From positions 88,196 through 152,195 of the forward strand of contig JBJHCZ010000004.1 in assembly GCA_050486285.1 (NCBI GenBank): a stretch of 64,000 nucleotides of DNA. The letters are read 5' to 3'. The DNA is from Chromatiales bacterium (GTDB taxonomy: Bacteria; Pseudomonadota; Gammaproteobacteria; SZUA-140). The notes under the pieces are model-generated. The model was not told where the DNA came from. It saw only the letters and a list, made by a program, of their open reading frames with translations, and did no database searches. A program made the position numbers and the translations under genes. How positions within the stretch are numbered: position 1 is the stretch's first letter; each line of letters starts with the position of its first letter. Positions 15,854-36,151 of the stretch are shown here, piece after piece.

Positions 15854-16177
15854 AGATCAAGGAGGAATTCCGCGAACCCTTTCCATTGCCCGAAAGCCGA
15901 ACGCCGCCGACCGGCGAGCAAGCCGTCCTGCTCCACTGACGCCCTGAACCCACAGATTGGCTGACGATGCTGCGACCGGTAACGTGGCAGGGTTCCGTTC
16001 GGCAGCGCGGTCAGGCGGGGTGGTATTTCAGGAAGAAGTGGCTCGAGTCTGGGGTGCCGGGAGCGGAATTCAGGGCGGATTCCACGGCATCGAGTGGTTA
16101 CCGTGCCCACCGTGCCAGGCATCGGCGGTGAAGGACCGCTGGATGTGGTCAAGATGGGTGTTTATTCTTCCTTATAC
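15849..16177 (+). mobile_element. IS91-family element 3-prime end fragment (last ~10 codons of transposase-like ORF plus ~230 bp end region terminating in oriIS-like GGGTGTTTATTCTTCCTTATAC); direct repeat of 25036-25441
   Basis: ~80-90% identical by eye to 25150-25438, same orientation; C-terminal peptide ...LKIKEEFREPFPLPESRTPPTGEQAVLLH resembles the IS91/ISCR transposase C-terminus; terminal TTTATTCTTCCTTATAC resembles the IS91/ISCR oriIS end as I remember it. Confidence 0.6.
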
Positions 16178-16693
16178 TCCGAGTACCGCCTTCGGCCGCG
16201 GCAGCGTTGCGCCGAGCGCGGCCCAGGCACGGGTCCAGTCGTTGTCCTCAAGCGCGTTCATCGGATTGCCGTGACCGAGGAATAGCGCCGGCATGCCCAT
16301 CGTCACGACAATGCGGGCGCTCCTGCCGGACAGCAGCTTTTTGTCCATCATCCCGGGACCGGATTTCGCTAATGCGAATCCCGGCCGCATCGTCTGCTCG
16401 AGGAAACCCTTGAGCAGGGCGGGCATCGAGCCCAGCCACAGCGGATAGAGGATCACCAGGTGGTCAGCCCACGCGATGACCTGCTGGGCATCCCTGATTC
16501 CCGGCGGCGGGTTGCCATCAGACCAGTCATCCTGGGTGCGCAGCAGCGGGAATTCGAGCCTGGCGACGTCGATGATCCGGCATTCATGACCGCCCTGCGC
16601 AGCGCCCTCCCGGTAGGCCACCGCAAGCGCATGCCCGAAGCGATTGCCTTGCGGATCAGGATGACCCTGAATAACCGCTATGCGTTTGCCCAT
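16172..16693 (-). CDS. flavodoxin-like NAD(P)H-dependent oxidoreductase (NAD(P)H dehydrogenase (quinone) / YwrO-MdaB-KefF-like)
   Basis: 173 aa; MGKRIAVIQGHPD..., ...ADHLVILYPLWLGSMPALLKGFLEQ... typical of Flavodoxin_2 family; stop codon lies inside the IS91-like terminal sequence. Confidence 0.7.
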   Translation of the reverse strand: MGKRIAVIQGHPDPQGNRFGHALAVAYREGAAQGGHECRIIDVARLEFPLLRTQDDWSDGNPPPGIRDAQQVIAWADHLVILYPLWLGSMPALLKGFLEQTMRPGFALAKSGPGMMDKKLLSGRSARIVVTMGMPALFLGHGNPMNALEDNDWTRAWAALGATLPRPKAVLGV

Positions 16694-16725
16694 GGCGATC
16701 GTTCCCTGACATGAACACCGTTGAC

Positions 16726-18711
16726 TTACTCATTGAGACGGTAGGAGCTGTGCTCGTAGCTGTACGGCCCGAATAGCGCGTGAGCAAGGGCGGTGTCAAT
16801 TAGTGTGTTGTCCGGATGCGCAACTTCACTGTATGTCCCGTTACTGTATTTGTAATGATGCGGTGGCAGATCCTTCTGGAGGATGACAACGTCTTCACCG
16901 GACATATAAGCCTGCACGTTATTGTACTGCATGATCGCGCGGCCGTCTGATCTACTCCAGTCGTTCATTGTCAGGTCATGACCGATCATTGGATGCTCCG
17001 ATTTGATTCCCATGATCGACAACAGGGTCGGCAGCATATCAATTTGACTGGCGATGTTGCCATAGACGCGTGGACTGATACCGGCGCCGAGTATCAGACC
17101 CGGGATGCGAAAATGCTCGATCGGTACGTTACTGGATCCGTAGACACGGTCATTATGGTCTGCGATCACCAGAAAAATGGTGTTTTCGTAGTATGAAGAG
17201 TTCTTCGCCTTGTCAAAGAATCCCCCCAATGCGTGGTCCGCGTATTTGACCGCGTTATTGACAGTCTGCCTGTCAGCATCGAACAATTCTATTCTGTTAT
17301 CGGGATAGTCATAAGGTGAATGATTGGATGTCGAAAAGGCCAGGGTGAATGACGGCTGGCCATCGTCTTTCGATAAAACTTCATGCAACTTGTTGAACAG
17401 ATCCTCATCAGAAACACCCCAGGATCCCATATGGACGGGGTTGTCAAAATCGTTCTGATCAATGATTTCATCAAATCCGTTACCGACAAAAAACCGTCTC
17501 ATGTTGTCAAAATGACTTTCCCCGCCATACAGAAACCGGCTTTTATACCCTTCATTTTTCAGCAGCCGGGCCACCGTATAAAAACCACGTTGTGATTTTG
17601 GCAGCTTGACGACGCTGATGCTGGCGGTAGGTGGAAACCCGGTAATCACCGCCTCGATACCGCGCACCGAGCGTGTTCCGGTGGCATACAGGTTTTCAAA
17701 CCAGATCCCCTCATTGGCAAGCGCATCCAGTCTGGGTGTCAGGGGCAGGCCTCCCAGCCGGCCAACACGCTCAGCGCCAAGGCTTTCCTCGAGAATGATC
17801 ACCAGGTTGGGTTTACGCACACGGGAAACCGTTGGCAGTTGCGTGTGCAGCGTTGGAATATCGCCGGGCAAGAATGCGCCGGCTGGTATGTTCATGTGAT
17901 TCCTGACGGTCTCCAGCATGACATCATCGGCCATAAAGCCATAGCGAAACCCGCCATGTTTCTCTTCCTTGGTCTCGTAAATGGCGTACAACAGGGAGTA
18001 GGTGGAATTCAATGCGAGATCATTGACCATGAGGTCAGAGGTGATCGCCGCCTTACTGGGATTGGCAGGTCGATGATCGAGGGTTGATCTGGCAGCGGCA
18101 AACAACAGGACAATGACCAGGGGGGTCGCCAGCAGCGCCTGCCACCAGGTGTATCGCGCGCTGGCACTTGCAACCCTGGCCATGGCCATCCAGAAAAATA
18201 TCACGATGGCAGGCAGGACAATTACTGCCAGCAGGAGTTCAAATCTGTATGCGCCCCACAGTGTCGCGCCCACTTCCAGCGGATATTTCAGGTACTCGAC
18301 AAACAGGATGTTGGGCCTTGCATCGTATTGATGGATAAAGCTCGGAGTAGCCAGCTCCATGAAGACCATGAAACCGAAGCAGGCTACCAGCACCATCCGC
18401 AGGGCACGTTGCCAAAGTCGATGAGTCATGCGATGTAACGACATGAGTGGCGTCAGCATGGCGGGTAATATCAGGAGCTGGCCGATGAGGATCAGATCGA
18501 AGCGCAGGCCGGTCAGCAAGATCCGGGCAAGCGCTTCGGTATTCAGTACCCGGTCGAGTTGCCATAGCACCAGGCCAAGCCTCGATAAAGTCAGTAATGC
18601 CAGCGTCGCCAGAATAAATACAACGAACGGTACCATGGGGCCGGCAAGGGCGCGCAGCATGGTCCCGTTCTTTTCAGGGAAATATTTCGGTGTTTCTGTT
18701 ATCGCGTGCAT
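16726..18711 (-). CDS. LTA-synthase/phosphoglycerol-transferase family protein (N-terminal multi-TM domain plus extracytoplasmic sulfatase-fold domain; OpgB/MdoB- or LtaS-like)
   Basis: 661 aa; ~5 N-terminal TM helices then sulfatase-like domain; lower-GC codon usage than flanks. Confidence 0.75.
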   Translation of the reverse strand: MHAITETPKYFPEKNGTMLRALAGPMVPFVVFILATLALLTLSRLGLVLWQLDRVLNTEALARILLTGLRFDLILIGQLLILPAMLTPLMSLHRMTHRLWQRALRMVLVACFGFMVFMELATPSFIHQYDARPNILFVEYLKYPLEVGATLWGAYRFELLLAVIVLPAIVIFFWMAMARVASASARYTWWQALLATPLVIVLLFAAARSTLDHRPANPSKAAITSDLMVNDLALNSTYSLLYAIYETKEEKHGGFRYGFMADDVMLETVRNHMNIPAGAFLPGDIPTLHTQLPTVSRVRKPNLVIILEESLGAERVGRLGGLPLTPRLDALANEGIWFENLYATGTRSVRGIEAVITGFPPTASISVVKLPKSQRGFYTVARLLKNEGYKSRFLYGGESHFDNMRRFFVGNGFDEIIDQNDFDNPVHMGSWGVSDEDLFNKLHEVLSKDDGQPSFTLAFSTSNHSPYDYPDNRIELFDADRQTVNNAVKYADHALGGFFDKAKNSSYYENTIFLVIADHNDRVYGSSNVPIEHFRIPGLILGAGISPRVYGNIASQIDMLPTLLSIMGIKSEHPMIGHDLTMNDWSRSDGRAIMQYNNVQAYMSGEDVVILQKDLPPHHYKYSNGTYSEVAHPDNTLIDTALAHALFGPYSYEHSSYRLNE

Positions 18712-18721
18712 GTGAATCTGC

Positions 18722-19084
18722 CTACTTGAAAATGATTATTGCCCATATGACAACGACGTTTATCAGGCTGATAAAGACCGCTGCGGATCCCATATCCTTT
18801 GCGCGACCTGACAGCTCATGATGTTCAGGTCCGATCCGATCCACGATGGCTTCAACGGCCGAGTTCATCAGTTCAGTAATGATTACCAGCACCAGTGATG
18901 CGATAAGGATTGCGCGTTCAACATTGGTATCTCCCAGCCAGAGTGCAGCAGGCACCAACAGCAGGGCCAGCACCGCCTCCTGACGGAAAGCCGCCTCATT
19001 CCTGTAAGCAGAAGTCAAACCTTTCAGGGAATAACCCGCTGCGCTGATGATGCGTTTGTATCCTGTTTCCCCTTGCCTGGACAT
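18722..19084 (-). CDS. dgkA: diacylglycerol kinase
   Basis: Internal start MSRQGETGYKRIISAAGYSLKGL...; 120 aa; classic DgkA 3-TM pattern (NEAAFRQE, IITELMNSAVE). Confidence 0.85.
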   Translation of the reverse strand: MSRQGETGYKRIISAAGYSLKGLTSAYRNEAAFRQEAVLALLLVPAALWLGDTNVERAILIASLVLVIITELMNSAVEAIVDRIGPEHHELSGRAKDMGSAAVFISLINVVVIWAIIIFK

Positions 19085-19312
19085 GGCCGATGAAGGCGGC
19101 TCCTGACTGATCGATGAATAACGTGGGCGCATTCTATACAAGCGTAAAGTATGCATAGAAGACAGTTGACAGCGGAGTAAGTTCGTCAGTCATTGCACAC
19201 AGCGGAACTGAAGCCGGGACATCAGTAGCGGCGTGGCGCGTGAATACAGCCGGAATGACGCCGAACGGCCGACTCCCCCTGCTTATGTGACTGAAAAATA
19301 TGACGATGACGC

Positions 19313-19978
19313 TTATTTCTCCGGCAATGGAATCGACTCGGTCTCACTAGGCACCATCGCAAATCGCCCCGACTTCCAGTCAGTCTTCGCCTGCTCCAGG
19401 CGAACGCGCGAACTCGATACGAAGTTCCACCAGATATGGCGCGGGCCATCCATCGGTTCGCCGCCAAGCAGCATCAGGCGCGCCGCCCCGGCGGTCGCCG
19501 TCAGGCCTATCACCGCGCCGAGGCGGAACACGACGAGGCGGCCGGCCCCGAAACTGCTGCGTCCCGGCATCACATCGACGGTGCCGTCGAGTACGAACAT
19601 CGCCCGCTCCGCGTGTTCGACCGGCAACGACAGGCTCGCGCCCGCGGCGAGATCGACATCGGCATAAAACGTTTCCGAGATGGTCCCGACCGGCGAGACT
19701 GCGCCGGGCCGGATCGGCTGCACAAAGCCGAGGCTGTCGCGGTGCAGGATCTCTCCGGAGAATAGAGACGAGATAGAAGTTATCGAGCAGCCACTCTCCA
19801 GCGGGGTGATACGGTATAGTGCGGCGACAGCCGCTGTCCGGATTCTGCCGGTTTCGATCAGAACCGCTTCGTTATCTGTGAGCCGTCCCAGCAGGAGCCC
19901 GGGATACTTGCCTGTAGTGATGCGATGAGCCGTCGCGAGTCGAGCGCCGTGTTGCTTCATCTGCTCGGTGCCGAACAA
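19313..19978 (-). CDS. pirin-like cupin protein (possibly N-terminally short/atypical)
   Basis: C-terminal ...HIWWNFVSSSRVRLEQAKTDWKSGRF... matches the bacterial pirin C-terminal motif as I recall it; canonical N-terminal HPHRG metal motif not seen. Confidence 0.5.
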   Translation of the reverse strand: MFGTEQMKQHGARLATAHRITTGKYPGLLLGRLTDNEAVLIETGRIRTAAVAALYRITPLESGCSITSISSLFSGEILHRDSLGFVQPIRPGAVSPVGTISETFYADVDLAAGASLSLPVEHAERAMFVLDGTVDVMPGRSSFGAGRLVVFRLGAVIGLTATAGAARLMLLGGEPMDGPRHIWWNFVSSSRVRLEQAKTDWKSGRFAMVPSETESIPLPEK

Positions 19979-20197
19979 CTCGGTCCGCAGCGGCGACTCG
20001 CTGCCAAACGATTTATCTGTCAGGCCATTTCCGCCTCGATGTGGTGCAGCGGAAACCGCACCAGCAGCCCGTCCTCGCCATAGTTGACTGGCGCCAACAA
20101 GGCTTCGTGACAGAAAGGTGGATAATTAGTCCTGTGCTGAATGCACCCGGGGTGACGCCCATGCAAGCGACTGCCTGTAGTCGCGCATATCCCGGTA

Positions 20198-20356
20198 TCA
20201 AATCCTTCCCATGATAAGAAGGACAAGTAGCACGATCAAAATGACACCGACAATTCCGCTCGGCGCATAGCCCCAATTGTTGCTGTGATTCCAGACGGGA
20301 ATAACGCCCAGAAGAAGCAGAACCAGGACAATCAACAGGATTGTCGAAAGCGACAT
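20198..20356 (-). CDS. DUF3309 small membrane protein
   Basis: 52 aa: MSLSTILLIVLVLLLLGVIPVWNHSNNWGYAPSGIVGVILIVLLVLLIMGRI (two TM, WGY motif). Confidence 0.6.
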   Translation of the reverse strand: MSLSTILLIVLVLLLLGVIPVWNHSNNWGYAPSGIVGVILIVLLVLLIMGRI

Positions 20357-20479
20357 GACGGTATGCCCTCGAAGATAGAGAAGCTCCACAGTATCCGGTG
20401 TCGATTGCATGATCCGTGCGCTAGCGTACCGTCGGGGTAGCGTGATTCGGATAGTTTGTGACTTTATCGAGGGATCATC

Positions 20480-20704
20480 ATGGGCACATCTCGAATTGCA
20501 GCCGTTGTTCTGATACTGGTTGGCGTGCTCGCACTGGCGTATGGCGGATTCACCTACACCAGCGACACGCACGAGGCCAGGGTAGGATCGCTCAGCATGT
20601 CGGTCGATGAGCGGAAGCGCGTCAATATACCGGTATGGGCCGGCGCGGGCGCTGTCGTGGCCGGTGGCCTGCTGTTCCTGTTTTCCGGGCATCGTCGGCG
20701 ATAG
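20480..20704 (+). CDS. small two-TM membrane protein, unknown function
   Basis: 74 aa; hydrophobic N- and C-terminal segments flanking a polar loop. Confidence 0.35.
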   Translation: MGTSRIAAVVLILVGVLALAYGGFTYTSDTHEARVGSLSMSVDERKRVNIPVWAGAGAVVAGGLLFLFSGHRRR

Positions 20705-20787
20705 CGGCGAGTCAGTCCCGTGACAGCGAGCTGTGCCTGTCGCTGCTGTTTCCATTTTCACTAAACCTCAATAAATGGAGAAACGTT

Positions 20788-21189
20788 ATGCACGAATCAA
20801 CCAGAAGTCGTCTTGCGTGGCGCGTCTGTATGCCAGCAATCGCAACCTTGACCGTCATGCTGCTGAGTGCGTGCGGATCTGCACCCGTAGCGCCCACCGA
20901 ATCCCTCGCAGCTGCCCGTGACGCTATCGCCAACGCGGAACAGTCGGATGCGCGGCAGTTTTCCGGCGCCGAACTCGACGAAGCTCGCCATCAACTTGAA
21001 CAGGCGGAAGCAGCCGTCAGCGCCGAGAATATGATCGAAGCGGATCGACATGCCAAACAGTCACGTGTCGTCGCCGAACTTGCCTCGGAAAGGGCTGCTA
21101 CGGCCAAGGCTACTGAAATCAACCGGCAGATGGGCAGGGACGCCGAAGCCCTGAGAGAGGAAATGAAGCGTACAGGAGATCAGCAATGA
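20788..21189 (+). CDS. DUF4398-type lipoprotein
   Basis: GGAG RBS; lipobox LLSAC; alpha-helical acidic body (ESLAAARDAIANAEQSDARQFSGAELDEARHQLEQAEAA...) typical of DUF4398 proteins that precede OmpA-family genes. Confidence 0.6.
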   Translation: MHESTRSRLAWRVCMPAIATLTVMLLSACGSAPVAPTESLAAARDAIANAEQSDARQFSGAELDEARHQLEQAEAAVSAENMIEADRHAKQSRVVAELASERAATAKATEINRQMGRDAEALREEMKRTGDQQ

Positions 21190-22172
21190 ACCGGATAAAT
21201 TACACACAGACGCTGCGTGGCAGTGCTTTCACAGCAGTCATCATCGCTACTTTCACGCTTGGCGCATGCGCCAGTGCGCCGACCAGCCCCCAGGGTTCAG
21301 CAGAAGTCCGCAGCAAGTTGACTGCGTTGCAGAACGATCCTGAGCTGGCCCCGCGGGCAAGGGTACAAATCCGCGAGGCAGAGGCTGCGGTACGTGAGGC
21401 GGAAGAACCCATTTCAAGGAAAGTCGCAAAGAAAGACGAAGGCCTCGGCGAGCATCGCGTCTTCATGGCGGATCGCAGGGTGGAGATCGCGAGGGCCGTA
21501 GCCGTCAGACAGTTGGCCGAGGATCAGCGCAAGCGGCTCGGAGAAGAGCGTGATCAGGCGCGCCTGCAGGCGCGTACGATCGAAGCGGACAGGGCGCGCA
21601 GCGATGCCGAACGTGCGCGCGCAGAGACAGGGAGAGCGCAAAGTGAAGCAGAGGCAGCTCGCCTGGCAAGGGCGGAGTCCTCGGCTGAATCACAGCGAAT
21701 GGCGACGCAGGCCTCTGAAGAAGCCGCACGCCACGCAGCAGAATTACAGGGGCAGATCGATGCCTTGCAGGCAGAGGCGACCGACCGCGGTCTGGTAGTA
21801 ACGCTGGGAGACGTGTTGTTTGCCACCGGTAGCTCCGAGTTGCAACCAGGGCCCAACAGTAACCTGAACAAACTGGTGAGCTTTCTCAAGAAGTACCCCG
21901 ATCAACGTGTACTGATTGAAGGGCATACCGACAGCGTCGGTAGCGCCGATTTCAATATGGCACTGTCGCAGCGTCGCGCGGAGGCCGTCAGAAACTATCT
22001 GACACGAGAGGGTGTCGCATCGCAACGGCTGACCACCTCGGGGATGGGCATGGATCACCCGGTTGCAAGCAACGCCACGGCTACCGGCCGCTTGCAGAAC
22101 CGCCGTGTCGAGATCGTCATCGAGAGACCTCAGCTGAAGTCGCCTCAGGCGACCACTGGATTCCGTCAGTAG
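21186..22172 (+). CDS. OmpA-family lipoprotein with long coiled-coil region and C-terminal OmpA/peptidoglycan-binding domain
   Basis: 328 aa; lipobox LGAC; coiled-coil (QRKRLGEERDQARLQARTIEADRARSDAERARAE...); OmpA-C motifs (NSNLNKLVSFLKKYPDQRVLIEGHTDSVGS...NMALSQRRAEAV...RRVEIV); ATGA overlap with upstream gene. Confidence 0.8.
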   Translation: MNRINYTQTLRGSAFTAVIIATFTLGACASAPTSPQGSAEVRSKLTALQNDPELAPRARVQIREAEAAVREAEEPISRKVAKKDEGLGEHRVFMADRRVEIARAVAVRQLAEDQRKRLGEERDQARLQARTIEADRARSDAERARAETGRAQSEAEAARLARAESSAESQRMATQASEEAARHAAELQGQIDALQAEATDRGLVVTLGDVLFATGSSELQPGPNSNLNKLVSFLKKYPDQRVLIEGHTDSVGSADFNMALSQRRAEAVRNYLTREGVASQRLTTSGMGMDHPVASNATATGRLQNRRVEIVIERPQLKSPQATTGFRQ

Positions 22173-22347
22173 TTTCACGCTGATTGCGGAGGCGGCTGAG
22201 ACCGGGCAGTCGAATGGCGATGACAACGTGCTTGCATTATGAGATCTGACCGGAACACACGCAGAGGAAAAATCAGGGAATCATGAATAAGGCTACGTGC
22301 CTGTTATCTGTCTGTTCGATTATCTACCTCCATGGAGTGATACTTAC

Positions 22348-22941
22348 ATGAAAATATATCTGCCCGGAAATACCATGGTTGCCACGACTATTGTAGTCCT
22401 GCTCACGCTCGGTATTGCAGCCTGTGACAATTCCTCCGATGAAACCCGGTCAGAGTCACGCAGCGACAGCATGACTGCGGCTATCTCTGACGCAGCCATG
22501 ACCGCTCAGGTCAAGGCGAAACTGGCGACCGCAGGCGATTTGAAGAGTTCCGATATCAGCGTCTCAACGGCCAATGGCGTGGTTACGCTTGAAGGTACAG
22601 TGGCCAATGCAGACGCCAAAGCCCGTGCGGAGCAGGTGGCCAATTCTGTCGATGGTGTCAGGAGCATAAGGAATAACCTGCACGCCGGCTCAGGGGGCAT
22701 CAGCATGGCAGGCGCAGAGCGGGTCATGTCCGATAGCTGGATCACCACCAAGGTGAAATCCGAGTTGCTGGCCGATAGCCTGAGCAAGGGTTTCGAAGTC
22801 AATGTCGAAACCAGACAAGGCGTAGTAGCCCTGTCAGGTGAAATGAAGGATCAGGCAGCCGTCGATCATGTTACGGAGATTGCCGAGGGCGTAGAGGGCG
22901 TCAAGAATGTCGATACATCGGGATTGACAGTCAGCGACTGA
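22348..22941 (+). CDS. OsmY-like periplasmic lipoprotein with two BON domains
   Basis: Lipobox LGIAAC; two BON repeats (ISVSTANGVVTLEGTVANADAKARAEQVANSVDGVRSI / VNVETRQGVVALSGEMKDQAAVDHVTEIAEGVEGVKNV). Confidence 0.8.
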   Translation: MKIYLPGNTMVATTIVVLLTLGIAACDNSSDETRSESRSDSMTAAISDAAMTAQVKAKLATAGDLKSSDISVSTANGVVTLEGTVANADAKARAEQVANSVDGVRSIRNNLHAGSGGISMAGAERVMSDSWITTKVKSELLADSLSKGFEVNVETRQGVVALSGEMKDQAAVDHVTEIAEGVEGVKNVDTSGLTVSD

Positions 22942-23204
22942 AATCGTGCGCAGCAGTGGCAGTCGAGGTCTCTTTATGAGGCCCCGTTATTTTCTTCCCC
23001 TCATCGACGGATTAATGACAGTAACGCTGACATAGAAAAATTTAATGCAGCGGATTAAACGAGCAACCGAGCGCAACCTGAAGGATGCGGCTTCGTTCAT
23101 CAAGGAATGATCAAGGACAGGGTATGAGCTGTCGTGAATAAAATCTGGCGGCAGGGGGCAAAAACCCCTTGCCACACGCTTTATCAACTCTGATTGGAGG
23201 CATC

Positions 23205-23387
23205 ATGAATAATCAGAACCAGGTAAAGGGCCGTGCCCGCGCTGTAAAGGGCAAGGGCAAGGAAATCGCCGGCAAGCTGGTTGGTAACCGGCGTCTGGAA
23301 TTGAAAGGAAAATTGCAGAAAGCCGCCGGTAAAGCGCAAGCGGAAGCCGGTGATCTTCAGGAGGACATCGAGGAGAAGACAAGATGA
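23205..23387 (+). CDS. CsbD-family general stress protein
   Basis: GGAGG RBS; 60 aa MNNQNQVKGRARAVKGKGKEIAGKLVGNRRLELKGKLQKAAGKAQ... typical CsbD/YjbJ. Confidence 0.75.
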   Translation: MNNQNQVKGRARAVKGKGKEIAGKLVGNRRLELKGKLQKAAGKAQAEAGDLQEDIEEKTR

Positions 23388-23782
23388 ACTATGTATTGCC
23401 CGAAACCTCTGCACGCAGGTCATTGCACGAGATTATCCCCGGGCAGATCATGATGAGCATAGACGCCTTTATCGGAGACAACGTCTATAACCCCAAGGGC
23501 GAACGCCTGGGTAATATCCAGGACATCGTCCTCGACATTCAGAGCAACAAGCTGCGTTATGCCATTGTATCGTCGGGAGGCTTCCTCGGTATGGGCAGGC
23601 GGCTGCTGGCGGTGCCGTGGAATGCGCTGGATCTGGACCCGGACAACGGGAAAATTCTGCTCAATCTGGAGGCCACGCAGATCAGCAACGCACCCGGGTT
23701 TGACAGAAATCATTGGCCCAACATGAGCGACAGTGCCTGGGCAGCCAGTATCCATTCCTATTACGGGACCAGCCAGGATTGA
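23384..23782 (+). CDS. PRC-barrel domain protein
   Basis: ATGA overlap with csbD-like gene; VYNPKGERLGNIQDIVLDIQSNKLRYAIVSSGGFLGMGRRLLAVPWNAL matches PRC-barrel pattern. Confidence 0.7.
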   Translation: MNYVLPETSARRSLHEIIPGQIMMSIDAFIGDNVYNPKGERLGNIQDIVLDIQSNKLRYAIVSSGGFLGMGRRLLAVPWNALDLDPDNGKILLNLEATQISNAPGFDRNHWPNMSDSAWAASIHSYYGTSQD

Positions 23783-23852
23783 ACGGGCGTGGATGTATCC
23801 CACCCTGCCATGCGCACTCTATGGCGCAGTTTATCAAACAGGAGATCTACCA

Positions 23853-24194
23853 ATGAGTAAAGCAACAGATACCATTACGGGAAACTCGGGTCCGGGATCG
23901 CATGTTCTCGAGAAGGGCGTCGATCGCCTGGCGAAGGGCGCCCATAATCGAATTGATTCCGCATCCGATGCCGCGGGCCCGGCGATCGATCGCATGACCT
24001 CCCGCGCGCATAATGCAGTAAACAAGGCGGATGAAGTAGCGACGCAGGCGGCCGTGGCGATCGAAGCGTTTGGCGTCAAGACTGAAGAACTGGCCGCCAC
24101 CGGTGTGAATTATATGCGCAAGCATCCGCTGCTTTCACTGAGTCTGGCGGTCGCTGCCGGCTATGTACTGAGTCGTCTGCTGGCGTCCCGCTGA
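23853..24194 (+). CDS. DUF883 family membrane-anchored stress protein (ElaB/YqjD/YgaM-like)
   Basis: Internal start MSKATDTI with GGAG RBS; helical N-part, C-terminal anchor ...YMRKHPLLSLSLAVAAGYVLSRLLASR typical of YqjD/ElaB. Confidence 0.75.
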   Translation: MSKATDTITGNSGPGSHVLEKGVDRLAKGAHNRIDSASDAAGPAIDRMTSRAHNAVNKADEVATQAAVAIEAFGVKTEELAATGVNYMRKHPLLSLSLAVAAGYVLSRLLASR

Positions 24195-24208
24195 CAGACG
24201 CGCCGATT

Positions 24209-24649
24209 ATGATGATTCAGCGCGGCGACCCCGGGACAGGTTCCGGGGCAGAGGCCGGTGACGCGCCAGCGCCGCCAACAGGTCTGATCCGGGATGTGAT
24301 CGGCCTCGTGCATGAAATCAGGGAGCAGGCGCACGACCACCTGCAACTGGCGGTTCTTGAGACGCGGCTGTCGATCAACAGTCTGCTGGCCATGGCGATC
24401 ATTGCGATCGTCATTGCCATACTGCTGATCAGTGTATGGCTTGCGCTCGTGGGCGCTGCGGTCATGGCGCTGATCGCTGTCGGCCTCAGCCCTGCGGTCG
24501 CCCTGCTGGCGATGGGAGCCTGCAATCTCGCAGGCGCGTTACTGGGCTGGCTGCTGATACGGCGCCTGAGCAACTCGCTGGGTTGGCCTGCAACACTGCG
24601 TGCGCTCAGGTCGGAGTCGTCATCCAAAGGCGAGGGTCCATCGACATGA
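24209..24649 (+). CDS. YqjE-like (DUF1469, holin-superfamily-like) inner-membrane protein
   Basis: 146 aa with two central TM helices; position immediately after DUF883 gene mirrors E. coli yqjD-yqjE-yqjK. Confidence 0.55.
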   Translation: MMIQRGDPGTGSGAEAGDAPAPPTGLIRDVIGLVHEIREQAHDHLQLAVLETRLSINSLLAMAIIAIVIAILLISVWLALVGAAVMALIAVGLSPAVALLAMGACNLAGALLGWLLIRRLSNSLGWPATLRALRSESSSKGEGPST

Positions 24650-29047: not shown

Positions 29048-29222
29048 GTAATTCCGTCACTTTTCATGGGCCTGTTATTGACCTCATCGGGGAAAAACCG
29101 GATGATACTCCGTTGCTGTGCGTCTATCGACCGGCCCGGCTCTGGAAGCAGGGAAACGCAGAACAATATCAATGAAAACAGGCAAGTTGACAAATATGAC
29201 TCAGAGTAGGGACGGCTAGCCC

Positions 29223-30275
29223 ATGAATGTCACCGCAGGTTATCTCAAGAAGGGGGCGCGCCAGACCGAGACGCGCCCGCTCAGCGTCGCCGACAAGAAG
29301 CGCCTGCTGCACGAGATGCTGTACGCGCGGCGCTTCGAGGAGCGCTGCTACGAGGCCTACGTGGAGCGCAAGATCGGCGGCTTCCTGCACCTGTACTCCG
29401 GCCAGGAGGCCTGCGTGCACGGGGTCATGGAGGCGGCCCGCCCGGGCCACGACTACGTCATTACCGGTTACCGCGACCACATCCACGCGATCAAGTGCGG
29501 CGCCGACCCGAAGCGGGTCATGGCCGAGCTGTACGGCAAGGAGACCGGCAGCAGCCGCGGCCGCGGCGGCTCGATGCATGTCTTCGATGTCGAGGCGCGC
29601 TTCATGGGCGGTTACGCGCTGGTCGGCGGCCCGTTCCCGCTCGCCGCCGGGATCGCCAAGGGCATCAAGATGAAGGGCGGCGACGAGATCTCGATCTGCT
29701 TCCTCGGCGATGCCGCCAACAACCAGGGTACCTTCCACGAGACGCTGAACATGGCGCGCATATGGCAGCTGCCGGTGCTGTTCGTCTGCGAGAACAACCT
29801 CTACGGCATCGGCACCCGCATCGACCGCTCGACCGCGGTGATGGACCAGTACAAGCGCGCCGCCGCCCATGACATCCCGGCGGTGCAGACCGACGGCCAG
29901 GACGTCGAGGCCGTCTACGAGGCCGCGGTCACCGCGGTCAACCATGTACGCTCGGGTGAAGGCCCGTATTTCCTCGAACTGATGACCTATCGCTATCGCG
30001 GCCACTCGATGTCCGACTCGAACGCCTACCGCAAGAAGGACGAAGAGAAGAAGTGGCTCAAGCGCGACCCGATTCACCTTCTGCGCAATCGCCTGATCGA
30101 TGACAACGAGCTGACGCTGGACCACTTCAAGGCGATGGACCGCGAGATCATCGACCGGATCGAGAACGAGGTGATCCGTTTCGCCGAGGAGTCGCCGGAA
30201 CCGTCGCCGGATGAGGTGGAGAAATACGTGCTCGCGGACAACGATCCGTGGGTCAACGGCGGAGGAAAGCGCTGA
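29223..30275 (+). CDS. pdhA: 2-oxoacid (pyruvate/acetoin-type) dehydrogenase E1 component alpha subunit, TPP-dependent
   Basis: 350 aa; heterotetrameric E1-alpha hallmarks (GFLHLYSGQEA, TPP-binding GDAANNQGTFHETLNMA, YRYRGHSMSD). Confidence 0.88.
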   Translation: MNVTAGYLKKGARQTETRPLSVADKKRLLHEMLYARRFEERCYEAYVERKIGGFLHLYSGQEACVHGVMEAARPGHDYVITGYRDHIHAIKCGADPKRVMAELYGKETGSSRGRGGSMHVFDVEARFMGGYALVGGPFPLAAGIAKGIKMKGGDEISICFLGDAANNQGTFHETLNMARIWQLPVLFVCENNLYGIGTRIDRSTAVMDQYKRAAAHDIPAVQTDGQDVEAVYEAAVTAVNHVRSGEGPYFLELMTYRYRGHSMSDSNAYRKKDEEKKWLKRDPIHLLRNRLIDDNELTLDHFKAMDREIIDRIENEVIRFAEESPEPSPDEVEKYVLADNDPWVNGGGKR

Positions 30276-31267
30276 TGGCCGAGATGATGTACTGGGAGGC
30301 GATCCGCCGCGCCCATGACGAGGAGATGGCCCACGACCCGCTGGTCATCGCGATGGGCGAGGACATCGGCGTCGCCGGCGGTACCTACAAGGCGACCCAG
30401 GGGCTGTATGAAAAGTACGGCCCGGAGCGCATCATCGACACCCCGATTTCCGAGAACAGCTATACCGGGCTTGGCATTGGCGCGTCCTTCGTCGGCGTGC
30501 GTCCGATCATCGAGATCATGTCGGTCAACTTCGCGTGGCTGGCGATGGACCAGATCGTCAACACCGCGGCCAAGGTGCGCTACATGTCCGGCGGCCAGCT
30601 CACCGCGCCGGTCGTGATCCGCTCGCCGGGCGGCACCGCGCACCAGCTCGGCGCGCAGCATTCGGCGCGCATGGAGAAGGTGTTCATGGGCATTGCCGGC
30701 CTGCGCGTGGTGACGCCGTCGACGCCGAAACAGGCCTACGGGCTGCTGAAGTCGGCGGTGCGCTGCGACGACCCGGTGTTCATCAACGAGCACGAGCTGA
30801 TGTACAACATGCGCGGCGAGGTCCCCGACGAGGAGTTCTTCCACCCGCTCGAGGGTTCCGAGGTCGTGCGCGAGGGCCGCGACGTGACGCTGTTCGGCTA
30901 CAACATCTCAGTGCACTGGTGCCTGCAGGCGGCAGAGACGCTGTCGAAGCAATACGGCATCGAGGCCGAGGTCGTGGATCTCTATGCGCTGTCGCCGCTC
31001 GACCGCGAGGGCATCGCGCGCTCGATCGCGAAGACCCATCGCGCGGTCGTCGTCGAGGAGGCCGAGGCCCCGGTCGGCGTCGGTTCCGAGATCATGGCGG
31101 TCATCAACGAGACCTGCTTCTTCGACCTCGACGCGCCGCCGCTGCGGGTATCGGCGCTGAACGTGCCGATCCCGTACAGCCGTCCGCTCGAAAAGGCGGT
31201 GATCCCGAACGCGAAGAAGGTCGTCGAGCAGACGATGACGCTGTTCCAGACCCGACGCGCGAGCTGA
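30275..31267 (+). CDS. pdhB: 2-oxoacid dehydrogenase E1 component beta subunit
   Basis: Start MAEMMYWEA overlaps pdhA stop (TGATG); transketolase-like pyrimidine-binding and C-terminal domains. Confidence 0.88.
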   Translation: MAEMMYWEAIRRAHDEEMAHDPLVIAMGEDIGVAGGTYKATQGLYEKYGPERIIDTPISENSYTGLGIGASFVGVRPIIEIMSVNFAWLAMDQIVNTAAKVRYMSGGQLTAPVVIRSPGGTAHQLGAQHSARMEKVFMGIAGLRVVTPSTPKQAYGLLKSAVRCDDPVFINEHELMYNMRGEVPDEEFFHPLEGSEVVREGRDVTLFGYNISVHWCLQAAETLSKQYGIEAEVVDLYALSPLDREGIARSIAKTHRAVVVEEAEAPVGVGSEIMAVINETCFFDLDAPPLRVSALNVPIPYSRPLEKAVIPNAKKVVEQTMTLFQTRRAS

Positions 31268-31373
31268 GGCCTGCGTGACAAGGGGTCAGGACGCCCGCGG
31301 AGGTCGACGGGCGCCCTGGCCCCTTGAAGCTTGAAGATCCATAAAATTCGCTGTCCGCAATCCAGGGAAGAGC

Positions 31374-34300
31374 ATGTCCGATACCTACCAGATAAAAATG
31401 CCCCAGCTCTCCGACACGATGACCGAGGGTGTCGTCGTCAGTTGGGAGAAGAACGTTGGTGACAAGGTCGAGCGCGGCGATATCGTCGCGACGGTCGAGA
31501 CCGACAAGGCGATCATGGACGTCGAGGTGTTCCGCGAGGGCTTCCTGTCCGGTCCGCTGGCGGCGGTCGGTGATACGGTCGCGGTCGGCGAGCCGATCGC
31601 GCAGCTGGTATCGAGCAAGGAGGCGGTCGGCAAGGGTGACGGCGGCAAGCCGAAGCAGGACAAATCGGCAAAGCAGGACAAGCCCGCGGCCCCGAAGGCG
31701 GAAGCGAAGGGCGGCGGTGACAAGGCCCCCGGGAAGTCGGCGCCAGTCGCGGAATCGGCAGGCGGCGGCAGTGCCCCCGCCGGCGCGATCTACACGATCG
31801 CGATGCCGCAGCTCTCCGACACGATGACCGAGGGTGTCGTCGTGAGCTGGGAAAAGCAGCCTGGCGACAAGATCGAGCGCGGCGACATCGTCGCGACGGT
31901 CGAGACCGACAAGGCGATCATGGACGTCGAGGTGTTCCGCGAAGGCTTCCTGTCGGGGCCGATCGCCGCGGTCGACAGCGTCGTCCCGGTCGGTGGCGAG
32001 ATGGCCTTCCTGGTCGCGAAGAAGGAAGAGGTCATCCGCGAGGGCACGCTCGGGCGCCAGTCCATAGCGCAGCAGCGGGATCATGATCACGATGAAGCCC
32101 CGGCGCGCGACACGGCCGCCGGCCGCGAAACACCCGCCGCGCCACGCGGCGCGGGCGATCATGACGCCGCGCCCGCGGATCGTCCGGCCGGCAAGGCCGT
32201 AACCCCGTATGCGCGCAAGCTCGCCGGCCGGCTCGGCGTCGATCTCGCGCAGGTCAGGGGCACCGGCCCTGCCGGCGAGGTCACCGCCGTCGATGTCGAA
32301 CGCGCCGGCGTCCGGCCCGCGGCGCATGCGGGCGCGGCGCCGGTCCACCCGGGCGCGGCCGCGCTCTTGTCCTCGCTGTCGGTCGACGTCCCCGGCGACG
32401 GCCGCAAGATGACCTCGCTCGAGCGCGCGGTCAGCCACAACATGATGCGTGCGCAGTCGATGCCGACCTTCCGCGTCACCGTCCATGCGCGTCCCGAGGC
32501 GCTCGCGCGCGCGGCGAAGAAGAACGGCATCTCGCTGACCGTCGCGATCGCGAAGGCCTGCGCGCTGGCGATGAAGGAACAGCCACGCATGAACTGGGCC
32601 TACCAGCCCGAGGACAAACTGATCGAGCGCGACCACGTCGACATCGGCATGGCGGTCACCGCCGAAGACGGCGGCCTCGTCGTGCCGGTGCTGCGCGGTT
32701 GCGAGTCGCGTTCGCTCGGGGAGCTGAACGACGACTGGAAGGACCTCGTCGAACGCGCCCGCAAACGCCGCCTCAAGCCCGACGAATACGCGAACCCGAC
32801 CTTCATGGTGTCGAACATGGGCATGCTCGGCGTCAGCCTGTTCGATGCGATCCCGACGCCCGGCATGGCGGCGATCCTCGCGATCGCGACCGCCGGCGAG
32901 CAGGGCATGCCGCTGATGATCACCGCCGACCACCGCGTCGTCTACGGCGCCCATGTCGCGAAATATCTCGGCGCGCTGAAGCAACTGATCGAGCAGCCGG
33001 AGTCGTGGATCAGCACCGGTCCTTTGATCCCGGAAGGCAACTGGGACTATGACGTCGCCGTCATCGGCGGCGGTCCCGGCGGCGAGGACTGCGCGCGCGA
33101 CCTCGCCGGTCACGGCTACAAGGTCGTCATGATCAACGACGCGCCGCTGCCCGGCGGCGAATGCCTGTGGCGCGGCTGCATCCCGTCCAAGGCCTGGCGC
33201 GCCGCGGCCGACCGCATCCGCGATCGCGCCGACGATGAGCATCTCGGTATCGAGGGCACGACCGCCGCGAAACTGAACTGGAAGAAGCTCGAGCAGACGC
33301 GTCGCGGCGTGCTCGAGACCCGCGGCGAGATGGCCGAGAAGACCGACAAGGGCGTGAAGATCACGCTGAAGCAGGGTTATGCCTCGTTCACCGGCGCGCA
33401 TGAACTGTTCGTCGATACCTCCGGCAACAGCAAGGAACGTCACCGGCGCGTCGCGCCCGGCGACGGCTCGAAGGGCGAGAAGCTGAGCTTTGGCTGCGCG
33501 GTCATCGCGACCGGCGCGCCGCCGTTCGTGCCGCCGATCCCCGGCGCGCGCGAAGGCCTCGCGGCCGGCGGCGTGCTGACTTCCGATACGGTGTGGGAGC
33601 TGAAGGACCGACCGAAGAAGCTGCTGGTCGTCGGCGGCGGCGCGATCGGTCTCGAGATGGCGCAGATCTTCCAGGACTTCGGCACCGAGGTCACGCTGCT
33701 CGAGGCCCAGGACCGCATCCTCGCCGAGGTCGAGGCCGAGGTCGCGAAGCAGTTGAGCGAAATCCTCAACGATGAGCCGCGCCTGAAGGTGCTGACCTCG
33801 GTCAAGGTCGACGAGATCAAGGGCAAGCCCGGCGCGATGAAGCTGTCCTATACCGATGCCGACGGCAAGAAGCACAACGCGAGCGCGGACTATGTGCTGA
33901 TGGCGACCGGCAAGCGCCCGCTGCTCGAGCCGCTGAAGCTCGACGCCGCCGGCGTCGCGACCGAGAAGGGCGTGGTCCGCGTCGACGCGAGCTGCCGGAC
34001 CTCGGTACCGCACATCTTCGCGGTCGGCGACGTCATCGGCGGGCTGATGCTCGCGCATACCGCCGGCCAGCAGGGCCGCGTCGCGGCGCAGACGATCGCC
34101 GGCGAGCGCGCCAGCTACGACCAGGCGAAGGACTGCGGCGTGATCTTCACGCGCCCGCAGGCCGCGTTCGTCGGCCTGTCGGCCGAGCAGGCAAAGGCGA
34201 AAGGGATCGACGCGGTCGAGGTCAAGGTGCCGATCAGCATCGATGCCAAGGCGATGATCAACCACGAGACCCACGGCCTGATCAAGATCGTCGCCGACAA

Positions 34301-34511
34301 GGCGTCGCGACGCATCGTCGGCGTGCACTTCCTCGCCGACCACGCCGACACGCTGATCGGCGAGGCGGTCATGATGGTCGCGGGCAAGCTGACGCTGGAC
34401 CAGGTCGCCGAGGCGATCCATCCGCATCCGACCCAGACCGAGCTGTTCGGCGACATGGCGCGCCGGCTGCTGTCGCGCCTGCGCCGCAGCGCGAAAAAGC
34501 CGGTGTCATAA
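31374..34511 (+). CDS. fused E2-E3 protein: two lipoyl domains + E3-binding domain + 2-oxoacid dehydrogenase acyltransferase catalytic domain + FAD/NAD dihydrolipoyl dehydrogenase-like flavoprotein
   Basis: Single 1045-aa ORF; two near-identical lipoyl domains (TVETDKAIMDVE x2), PSBD (TPYARKLAGRLGVDL), catalytic DHRVVYGAH, then GGGPGG FAD fold with redox disulfide GGECLWRGCIPSK and C-terminal HPHPTQTE. Confidence 0.8.
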   Translation: MSDTYQIKMPQLSDTMTEGVVVSWEKNVGDKVERGDIVATVETDKAIMDVEVFREGFLSGPLAAVGDTVAVGEPIAQLVSSKEAVGKGDGGKPKQDKSAKQDKPAAPKAEAKGGGDKAPGKSAPVAESAGGGSAPAGAIYTIAMPQLSDTMTEGVVVSWEKQPGDKIERGDIVATVETDKAIMDVEVFREGFLSGPIAAVDSVVPVGGEMAFLVAKKEEVIREGTLGRQSIAQQRDHDHDEAPARDTAAGRETPAAPRGAGDHDAAPADRPAGKAVTPYARKLAGRLGVDLAQVRGTGPAGEVTAVDVERAGVRPAAHAGAAPVHPGAAALLSSLSVDVPGDGRKMTSLERAVSHNMMRAQSMPTFRVTVHARPEALARAAKKNGISLTVAIAKACALAMKEQPRMNWAYQPEDKLIERDHVDIGMAVTAEDGGLVVPVLRGCESRSLGELNDDWKDLVERARKRRLKPDEYANPTFMVSNMGMLGVSLFDAIPTPGMAAILAIATAGEQGMPLMITADHRVVYGAHVAKYLGALKQLIEQPESWISTGPLIPEGNWDYDVAVIGGGPGGEDCARDLAGHGYKVVMINDAPLPGGECLWRGCIPSKAWRAAADRIRDRADDEHLGIEGTTAAKLNWKKLEQTRRGVLETRGEMAEKTDKGVKITLKQGYASFTGAHELFVDTSGNSKERHRRVAPGDGSKGEKLSFGCAVIATGAPPFVPPIPGAREGLAAGGVLTSDTVWELKDRPKKLLVVGGGAIGLEMAQIFQDFGTEVTLLEAQDRILAEVEAEVAKQLSEILNDEPRLKVLTSVKVDEIKGKPGAMKLSYTDADGKKHNASADYVLMATGKRPLLEPLKLDAAGVATEKGVVRVDASCRTSVPHIFAVGDVIGGLMLAHTAGQQGRVAAQTIAGERASYDQAKDCGVIFTRPQAAFVGLSAEQAKAKGIDAVEVKVPISIDAKAMINHETHGLIKIVADKASRRIVGVHFLADHADTLIGEAVMMVAGKLTLDQVAEAIHPHPTQTELFGDMARRLLSRLRRSAKKPVS

Positions 34512-34535
34512 GGCACTATCGGGAAAACATCATTC

Positions 34536-35765
34536 ATGTCTGACATCAGGAAAGTCGTCCTCGCCTATTCCGGCGGCCTCGATACCTCGGTGATCCTGCG
34601 CTGGTTGCAGGAGACCTACGGCTGCGAGGTCGTGACCTTCACCGCCGACATCGGCCAGGGCGAGGAGCTCGAGCCCGCGCGCCGCAAGGCCGAGGCGATG
34701 GGCGCGCGCGAGATCTTCATCGAGGACCTGCGCGAAGAGTTCGCGCGCGACTTCGTGTTCCCGATGTTTCGCGCCAATACGCTGTACGAGGGCGAATACC
34801 TGCTCGGCACCTCGATCGCGCGCCCGCTGATCGCGAAGCGCCTGGTCGAGATCGCCGAGGCCACCGGCGCCGATGCCGTTTCACACGGCGCGACCGGCAA
34901 GGGCAACGATCAGGTCCGCTTCGAGCTCGGCGCCTACGCGCTGAATCCGGAGATCCGCATCATCGCGCCGTGGCGCGAGTGGGACCTGCTGTCGCGCGAG
35001 AAGCTTTTGAACTGGGCCGAGAGTCGCGGCATCCCGGTCGAGGCCAAACGCAAGGGCGGTTCGCCGTACTCGATGGACGCAAACCTCTTGCACATCTCCT
35101 ATGAAGGCGGACCGCTCGAAGATCCGTGGGTCGAGCCCGAGGACACGATGTGGCGCTGGAGCGTCGCGCCGGAGCAGGCGCCGGACCGGCCGCAGTCACT
35201 CGAACTCGAGTTCGAGCGCGGTGACATCGTCGCGCTCGACGGCAAGCGCCAAAGCCCGGCGCAGATCATGGCGGAACTGAACCGCATCGCCGGCGCCCAC
35301 GGCGTCGGCCGCCTCGACCTGGTCGAGAACCGCTACGTCGGCATGAAATCGCGCGGCTGCTACGAGACGCCGGGCGGCACGGTGATGCTGAAGGCACACC
35401 GCGCGATCGAATCGATCACGCTCGACCGCGAGGTCGCGCACCTGAAGGACGATCTGATGCCGCGCTACGCGAGCCTGGTCTACAACGGTTACTGGTGGAG
35501 CCCGGAGCGGCGCATGCTGCAGCAGATGATCGACGCGTCGCAGGCCACCGTCAACGGCACGGTGCGCGTCAAGCTCTACAAGGGCAGCGTCTCGGTCACC
35601 GGTCGGCGCTCGCAACGCGACAGTCTGTTCGACGCCGATATCGCGACCTTCGAGGACGATGCCGGCAAATATAACCAGAAGGACGCGGAAGGCTTCATCA
35701 AGCTGAATGCGCTGCGCATGCGCATCGCCGCGCGGCTGAAGCGCAAGCCCGGAGGCAAGGGCTGA
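34536..35765 (+). CDS. argG: argininosuccinate synthase
   Basis: 409 aa; [10 protein letters not shown]-loop, full-length colinearity with ArgG. Confidence 0.95.
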
Positions 35766-36151
35766 TGCGCCTGCTGCACACGATGATCCGCGTCGGCGAC
35801 CTCGAGCGTTCGCTGAAATTCTATACCGGGGTGCTCGGCATGCGCCTGTTGCGCAAGCATGACTACCCGGACGGCCGCTTCACGCTGGCCTTCGTCGGCT
35901 ACGGGCCGGAGTCCGAGACCGCGGTCATCGAGCTGACCCACAACTGGGACACGACATCCTACGACCTCGGCAACGGCTTCGGCCATATCGCGCTCGAGGT
36001 CGACAATGCCGCCGCGGCCTGCGACGAGATCCGCGCCCGCGGCGGCAAGGTCGTGCGCGAGGCCGGGCCGATGAAGCACGGCACGACGGTCATCGCCTTC
36101 GTCGAGGATCCGGACGGCTACCGGATCGAGCTGATCCAGAAGAAGGCCTGA
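35765..36151 (+). CDS. gloA: lactoylglutathione lyase (glyoxalase I)
   Basis: 128 aa; [21 protein letters not shown]...GHIALEVDN...YRIELIQ; start overlaps argG stop. Confidence 0.9.

Follow-up and report, generated by a model that had tools for sequence, protein, structure and literature searches.

A probable bifunctional E2-E3 subunit of the pyruvate dehydrogenase complex encoded downstream of pdhA and pdhB in an uncultured Chromatiales bacterium

The closest described counterpart of the gene considered here reportedly comes from Thiobacillus (Acidithiobacillus) ferrooxidans, for which Powles and Rawlings (Microbiology 1997) are said to have found a pyruvate dehydrogenase (PDH) with 'an unusual E2-E3 subunit fusion' encoded downstream of pdhA and pdhB. 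The product is said to combine lipoyl domains and a binding domain with the E2 core and E3. This reported layout is met again in a stretch of 64,000 nucleotides (hereafter the window; contig JBJHCZ010000004.1, positions 88,196 to 152,195 of the forward strand), in which an open reading frame (ORF) at 31374..34511 (+), directly after pdhA-pdhB, encodes lipoyl domains, a binding domain, an E2 acyltransferase core and a dihydrolipoyl dehydrogenase (Lpd)-like E3. In all likelihood, this ORF is a bifunctional E2-E3 subunit of the PDH complex, produced from the three-gene unit pdhA-pdhB-(E2E3). The likeness to A. ferrooxidans is one of reported gene layout, and the organism differs, being here an uncultured Chromatiales-like gammaproteobacterium. 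In the genome paper on A. ferrooxidans, the PDH is assigned three genes, AFE3068-70 (PMC2621215), which is consistent with the reported fusion. Literature searches for natural PDH E2-E3 fusions returned no paper, and in a 2021 review on how 2-oxoacid dehydrogenases are built, OdhA is mentioned as an E1-E2 fusion but no fusion of the E2-E3 type (PMC8146983).

Other PDH complexes share only some of these features. Conventional complexes with an alpha/beta-type E1 (Geobacillus, mitochondria, alphaproteobacteria) agree with it in E1 type, in the order of the E2 domains and in Lpd chemistry. However, their E3 is a separate dimer, bound non-covalently through the binding domain or through the E3-binding protein E3BP, whereas here it is carried by every E2 chain behind a junction of ~8-13 residues; conventional E2 also keeps a segment before the DHR motif whose deletion is a feature of the fusion here. 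Lpd fused to a PDH module is found in Neisseria p64k (1ojt/1bhy) and in N. gonorrhoeae (5u25), which are among the matches of the E3 half. In this type of E3 a lipoyl domain only is fused, N-terminally and on a flexible linker, with neither a binding domain nor an oligomerising E2 core, so that no trimer-dimer conflict arises. In Corynebacterium OdhA and Mycobacterium Kgd, a 2-oxoacid dehydrogenase complex likewise has two of its catalytic components naturally fused, but these proteins join an E2-like domain to E1o and not to E3, lack lipoyl domains and depend on E2p (PMC8146983).

The fusion gene is a single ORF of 1045 amino acids (stop codon included in the coordinates) without internal stop, and its GC content at third codon positions (GC3), 0.90, is typical for genes of this 65% GC window. 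A Pfam scan gave, in this order, Biotin_lipoyl twice, E3_binding, 2-oxoacid_dh, Pyr_redox_2 and Pyr_redox_dim. The original prediction, made from the DNA letters without database searches, had described one uninterrupted 1045-residue ORF and a true E2-E3 single chain, which the full and ordered domain series bears out; the motifs that it had picked out are all found in the translation (DHRVVYGAH at 519, GGGPGG at 565-570, CLWRGCIPSK at 597 and HPHPTQTE at 1016). As E2 and lpdA are often adjacent but separate genes in other bacteria, one error could mimic a fusion, either a lost stop or a frameshift near 33000, introduced by sequencing or assembly, that joined the two. Such an artefact is extremely unlikely. 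In a check of the reading frame across 32980-33060, the junction DNA was free of homopolymer runs and the continuous ORF was shared by relatives, being present in 80 independently assembled genomes. Conservation of the junction peptide across 75 independent genomes, with W545, P553, G555 and W557 invariant, excludes a missed stop or frameshift. In addition, at least 120 protein clusters (NCBI, JGI, ENA, Logan) share the Pfam domain set and cover 98-100% of the query, and by these comparative sequence data the artefact is already refuted.

The 80 loci were retrieved by scanning one genome per species for a contiguous match to query residues 1 to ~1029. After re-extraction of the ORFs, 76 of these other species-level genomes hold a complete and uninterrupted fusion gene and four run off the contig end; conservation figures given below derive from a 76-sequence alignment. 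The protein clusters are 1000-1140 amino acids in length and 65-91% identical to the query. Carriers belong to Chromatiales, Thiohalomonadales, Thiohalobacterales, Thiogranum, Sulfuriflexus, Granulosicoccaceae and unclassified Gammaproteobacteria. At 91% identity, a metagenome-assembled genome (MAG) of an uncultured Chromatiales comes closest. Across the species-level genomes the fusion follows the same E1 genes: E1beta lies directly upstream in all 74 loci that retain upstream sequence, while in the remaining six the sequence starts at the fusion gene or no more than ~300 nt from it. In 66 of the 74, E1alpha is present too, directly upstream of E1beta in every one (66/66). E1beta identity ranges from 69 to 99% across related loci, and argG comes after the fusion in most of them. 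The suggestion that a full E2 core fused to E3 is rare is therefore not upheld, given the clusters and genomes just mentioned, further cases in other lineages and the fusion reported for T. ferrooxidans. Conserved and probably ancient, the fusion is a PDH variant of sulfur-oxidising Gammaproteobacteria.

The two E1 genes support the assignment to PDH. The E1 alpha subunit, PdhA (29223..30275, +; 350 amino acids), scores 277 bits with Pfam E1_dh and 409.6 bits with TIGR03182 (PDH_E1_alph_y; cut-off 393.85), and the E1 beta subunit, PdhB (30248..31267, +; 339 amino acids as listed), has the Pfam domains Transket_pyr and Transketolase_C and scores 374.1 bits with NF006667 (cut-off 321). Both subunits thus pass curated PDH-specific cut-offs, in agreement with the earlier view that E1 is of the heterotetrameric alpha/beta type (pdhAB). 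The accompanying remark that this type is less usual for gammaproteobacteria does not hold in this clade, where an alpha/beta E1 is the rule and not an oddity.

The N-terminal part of the fusion protein comprises two lipoyl domains (both PF00364), at residues 6-78 (31389..31607, +; lipoyl-lysine K45 in ETDKAIMD; predicted local distance difference test score, pLDDT, 77-92) and at residues ~141-213 (31794..32012, +; lipoyl-lysine K180). They are 80% identical to each other, and K45 and K180, each within ETDKA, are invariant in 76/76 sequences. The peripheral subunit-binding domain follows at residues 277-309 (32202..32300, +; PF02817, 43.4 bits against a cut-off of 23.7) and aligns to the solved binding domains 1w4i and 2eq8_C. 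With a mean family identity of 56%, compared with ~24% in the two long linkers, its sequence indicates that it is retained and under selection. The E2 acyltransferase domain occupies residues 345-545 (32406..33008, +; PF00198, 151.8 bits), with the predicted active site at S480 and H520 (DHR at 519-521); S480, D519, H520 and R521 are invariant. Its best model and its best PDB matches are PDH E2p, the latter mitochondrial 60-mer E2p, and 8eqn is among its matches. The E3 half, at residues 559-1045 (33048..34508, +), matches Pyr_redox_2 (228 bits, 559-901) and Pyr_redox_dim (97.7 bits, 922-1028). It displays the flavin adenine dinucleotide (FAD) motif GGGPGG (565-570), the disulfide pair C597/C602, the nicotinamide adenine dinucleotide (NAD) motif GGGAIG (754-759) with E777, and the dyad H1018/E1023, all of which are invariant in the alignment.

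Some observations nevertheless weigh against an ordinary E2-E3 function, in both catalytic halves as well as in the binding domain. To begin with, the activity and substrate of the fusion protein are deduced from conserved residues and family chemistry, and the inter-domain geometry derives from the confidence values of monomer AlphaFold models only. The E2 half misses the cut-offs of the PDH E2 equivalog models TIGR01349 (312.9 vs 445) and NF008814 (185 vs 722), which are whole-protein models not built for a fused chain. Residue 524 (32943-32945), which is Asp or Asn in canonical E2, is Tyr in the window. Asn occupies this position in 70/76 sequences, as it does after DHRxx in A. vinelandii E2p, and Tyr524 is confined to the window and its four closest relatives (L001, L002, L003, L040). 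Furthermore, the E2 domain lacks ~12-15 residues just before DHR (~32890-32925, residues ~506-516), a deletion common to the whole gammaproteobacterial fusion family, whereas the segment is kept in A. vinelandii and fungal E2p and in the distant fusions described below. Judged by its sequence, the E2 half is a divergent, compact member of the E2 family. As for the binding domain, of the three arginines important for E1/E3 partner binding in Geobacillus and Thermus, only the first (R281) is kept; the second position is Gly, with an Arg one residue later, and the third is Glu302, which varies across the family. Loss of the latter two arginines is compatible with a changed partner preference. In the E3 half, the score with the Lpd model TIGR01350 (lipoamide_DH), 377.4 bits, is below the equivalog cut-off of 408.8, and the redox loop reads CLWRGC throughout the family, which is atypical for an Lpd, where it is usually CLNVGC.

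The low E2 scores and the unusual compactness of the E2 catalytic domain would also be expected if the complex oxidised another 2-oxoacid or acetoin instead of pyruvate, and the sucB-type model TIGR01347 does reach 206 bits on the E2 half. The chance of this is nonetheless slim, as E1alpha and E1beta are both above their PDH-specific cut-offs, the best E2 model and PDB matches are PDH E2p, and the operon is placed among housekeeping genes (argG, M17 aminopeptidase, moeA) in an order that is syntenic across the clade. Pyruvate is the more probable substrate.

A comparable question is posed by the C-terminal flavoprotein, which could be another class-I disulfide reductase, MerA-, RclA-, SthA- or glutathione-reductase-like, with a different job such as stress defence. 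Its sub-threshold TIGR01350 score and its CLWRGC loop can be read in this way, as can the 303 bits obtained with MerA and the appearance of MerA structures from rank 41 of the fold comparison. Yet lipoamide_DH is the best of the NCBIfam models for this half, ahead of MerA, SthA (260) and glutathione reductase (229), the best PDB sequence matches are 1ebd_A (Geobacillus Lpd) and 6uzi, and in a Foldseek search with the AlphaFold model ranks 1-40 are all Lpd, with target-normalised TM-scores of 0.84-0.89. No MerA-type C-terminal Cys pair was seen in the translation, and the invariant His-Glu dyad and NAD-type acidic E777 also speak for an Lpd. When each domain of the fusion was searched in the 64-kb window for a separate lpd or other paralogues, only the fusion gene itself was found; no second E3 gene is present in the operon, and none was noted beside the operon in related loci. 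A non-Lpd identity is accordingly very unlikely. For residues 559-1030, profile and fold comparisons with MerA, glutathione reductase and SthA all put Lpd first, as had been predicted for the C-terminal half, and the domain is most probably an Lpd-like, divergent family member working as E3.

The two halves meet at residues 546-558 (ISTGPLIPEGNWD; 33009..33047, +), a short and conserved junction for which an ordered structure is predicted. In the alignment its consensus is IEQPExWMGPxGPAIPEGxWDYDVVVIGGG, in which E540, P542, W545, P553, G555 and W557 are invariant, and insertions are found in 3/76 sequences. Canonical E2 chains stop 5-8 residues past the position of P542, which leaves a true connector of only ~8-13 residues before the first E3 strand begins. 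The C-terminal hydrophobic residues of the E2 domain (ESW-M/I), the region of the knob-and-socket contact in 24- or 60-subunit cores, are conserved although the chain runs on into E3. In the full-length AlphaFold model, the inter-domain linkers 88-131, 227-264 and 314-335 have a pLDDT <50, in contrast to 76-88 for the junction blocks; in a two-domain model of residues 336-1045 (mean pLDDT 86.6, predicted TM-score 0.74) these blocks reach 85, 77 and 95. The models argue for an ordered E2-E3 junction and not for a flexible tether.

It might be proposed that the fusion is confined to the gene, and that translation starting internally or proteolytic cleavage at the junction releases E2 and E3 into a conventional complex. 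A Met at position 546, 13 residues before the first E3 strand, is indeed found in 59/76 sequences. However, the window has Ile (ATC) at this position, and 17/76 sequences have Leu or Ile, so that the start codon is not conserved, and an internal start codon at the junction was rejected as a candidate on these grounds. Conservation of the junction as a peptide, together with its predicted order, is not what is expected of a cleavage or spacer segment, and independent fusions exist with junctions down to ~3 residues. Separate products are hence improbable, and a single bifunctional chain is retained in what follows.

In such a chain, E1 (alpha2beta2) would decarboxylate pyruvate and reductively acetylate the two swinging domains of the N-terminal part at K45 and K180. 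The acetyl group would then be passed to CoA in the E2 catalytic domain, with H520 as the base and S480 in the active site, and the dihydrolipoyl arm would be reoxidised at the covalently attached E3, electrons moving from the C597-C602 disulfide to FAD and on to NAD+. H1018/E1023 would come from the other chain of an obligate E3 dimer. The subunit-binding domain of unfused alpha/beta-E1 complexes is contested between E1 and E3. The fusion would instead fix E3 at one copy per E2, and the binding domain that is retained would probably be available to E1, because a fused E3 needs no recruiting.

The original prediction had also pointed to a stoichiometric and architectural problem in placing an E3 on every E2. 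The problem is real, trimer-forming and dimer-forming domains being part of the same chain. E3 must dimerise because its active site uses the His-Glu of the partner chain; with E2 trimerising and the junction short and predicted to be ordered, E2 trimers would have to be bridged by E3 dimers. The C-terminus of canonical E2 cages faces the interior. By a volume estimate, 60 E3 domains of ~52 kDa take up ~3800 nm3, while a cavity ~12 nm across, the size we assume for the E2 cage, holds ~900 nm3, and E3 therefore cannot sit inside a canonical cage. A canonical cage that encloses E3 is hence improbable as the core. The chain would either exit at the two-fold interface, or E3 dimers would replace or augment the inter-trimer contact within the shell. 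Tentatively, with a likelihood somewhat short of even, the junction may fix the E2-E3 angle and yield a non-canonical PDH core in which E3 dimers act as struts between E2 trimers. Such a core could be a D3 hexamer, or else a trimer-dimer cage (tetrahedral, octahedral or icosahedral) whose shell includes E3, as opposed to a classical E2 cage with loosely bound E3. A search of the PDB gave no chain spanning both the E2 and E3 halves. The nearest engineered parallel is provided by Geobacillus E2p 60-mer nanoparticles, where a dimer-forming 'locking domain' meant for the two-fold, particle-forming interface was fused to the E2 C-terminus, inside the cage (PMC8113551; compare PDB 8eqn). Locking domains are, however, <=100 residues and fit inside the cage, whereas E3 here adds ~490 residues per chain and is too big by the volume estimate.

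Fusions of the same kind also exist far outside this family. For their detection, a 241-residue segment spanning the junction was searched against 1.84 billion representatives at 50% identity, among which the whole gammaproteobacterial fusion family amounts to one representative. Further junction-spanning proteins of 650-930 amino acids were retrieved, with 30-44% identity over the junction segment. In each of the ten distant fusions that were scanned, a single chain unites one lipoyl domain with binding, E2 and E3 domains. Three of the matches, P0162, P0250 and P0173, are complete fusions in Helarchaeota, Promethearchaeota and Bathyarchaeota MAGs, annotated merely as 'E2' or 'hypothetical'. 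While the distant fusions, these archaeal proteins included, have the same single-chain domain set and short junctions, they differ by their one lipoyl domain and unrelated junctions. Wherever the motif could be located in distant fusions (11/11), the canonical DHRxxDG and the hairpin preceding it are kept. The junctions of the distant fusions are unrelated in sequence, with gaps of ~3 to 33 residues from the E2 end to the E3 start, and from these sequences the E2-E3 fusion therefore probably arose more than once. Plasmid matches to the junction-spanning query (H1-H15), many of them on Klebsiella, Acinetobacter and Rhizobium plasmids, have E2 and lpdA as adjacent, separate genes. Such adjacency is likely the precursor arrangement for the fusions and offers a simple route to a fusion by loss of one stop codon.

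At the gene level, the finding is ordinary, the fusion being widespread in sulfur-oxidising Gammaproteobacteria. Names given to it in public databases are generic ('FAD-dependent oxidoreductase', 'dihydrolipoamide dehydrogenase'); the annotation should read bifunctional PDH E2/E3, and genome-scale models should not count its carriers as lacking E2 or E3. The remaining interest is structural, since a fixed 1:1 ratio of E2 to E3 and a rigid trimer-dimer fusion are a misfit for the textbook cage with its inward C-terminus. The family thus lends itself to testing in what ways PDH cores can be built and what makes them so large. If E3 dimers do act as struts, it would provide a natural example of the trimer-dimer fusion principle on which designed protein cages draw, and would add one more PDH architecture to the 24-mer, the 60-mer and the actinobacterial trimer.

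With regard to the operon, a weak sigma-70-like promoter match (TTGACC-17-GATGAT, 29078..29106, +; 9/12 consensus positions) is situated in the divergent intergenic region 5' of pdhA, upstream of which the M17 aminopeptidase gene lies divergently on the minus strand. The listed pdhB ORF opens at GTG and overlaps the end of pdhA by 28 nt (30248-30275); profile matches begin at residue 10, and the true start may be a few codons downstream of this GTG. Downstream, argG (34512-36151 stretch, with a glyoxalase-family gene directly after) begins 24 nt past the stop codon of the fusion gene, and a terminator scan gave no convincing terminator between the two. Most related loci show the order E2E3-argG(-glyoxalase) again, so that co-transcription of the fusion gene with argG is possible. 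On the opposite strand, a 1107-amino-acid ORF (31104..34427, -) covers nearly the whole fusion gene; it failed the codon-position GC filter, has no other support, and was treated not as a gene but as the kind of shadow ORF that high-GC coding DNA typically contains. An Rfam scan of the window gave no match. Finally, GC content falls to 0.545-0.583 at 16000-24500, compared with 0.65-0.70 elsewhere in the window. This low-GC stretch, which lies ~5 kb upstream of the pdh operon and is possibly a horizontally acquired island, harbors genes for a 661-amino-acid sulfatase-domain protein (16726-18711, -), a pirin-like protein, an OmpA-family protein (21186-22172, +) and a BON-domain protein (22297-22941, +).

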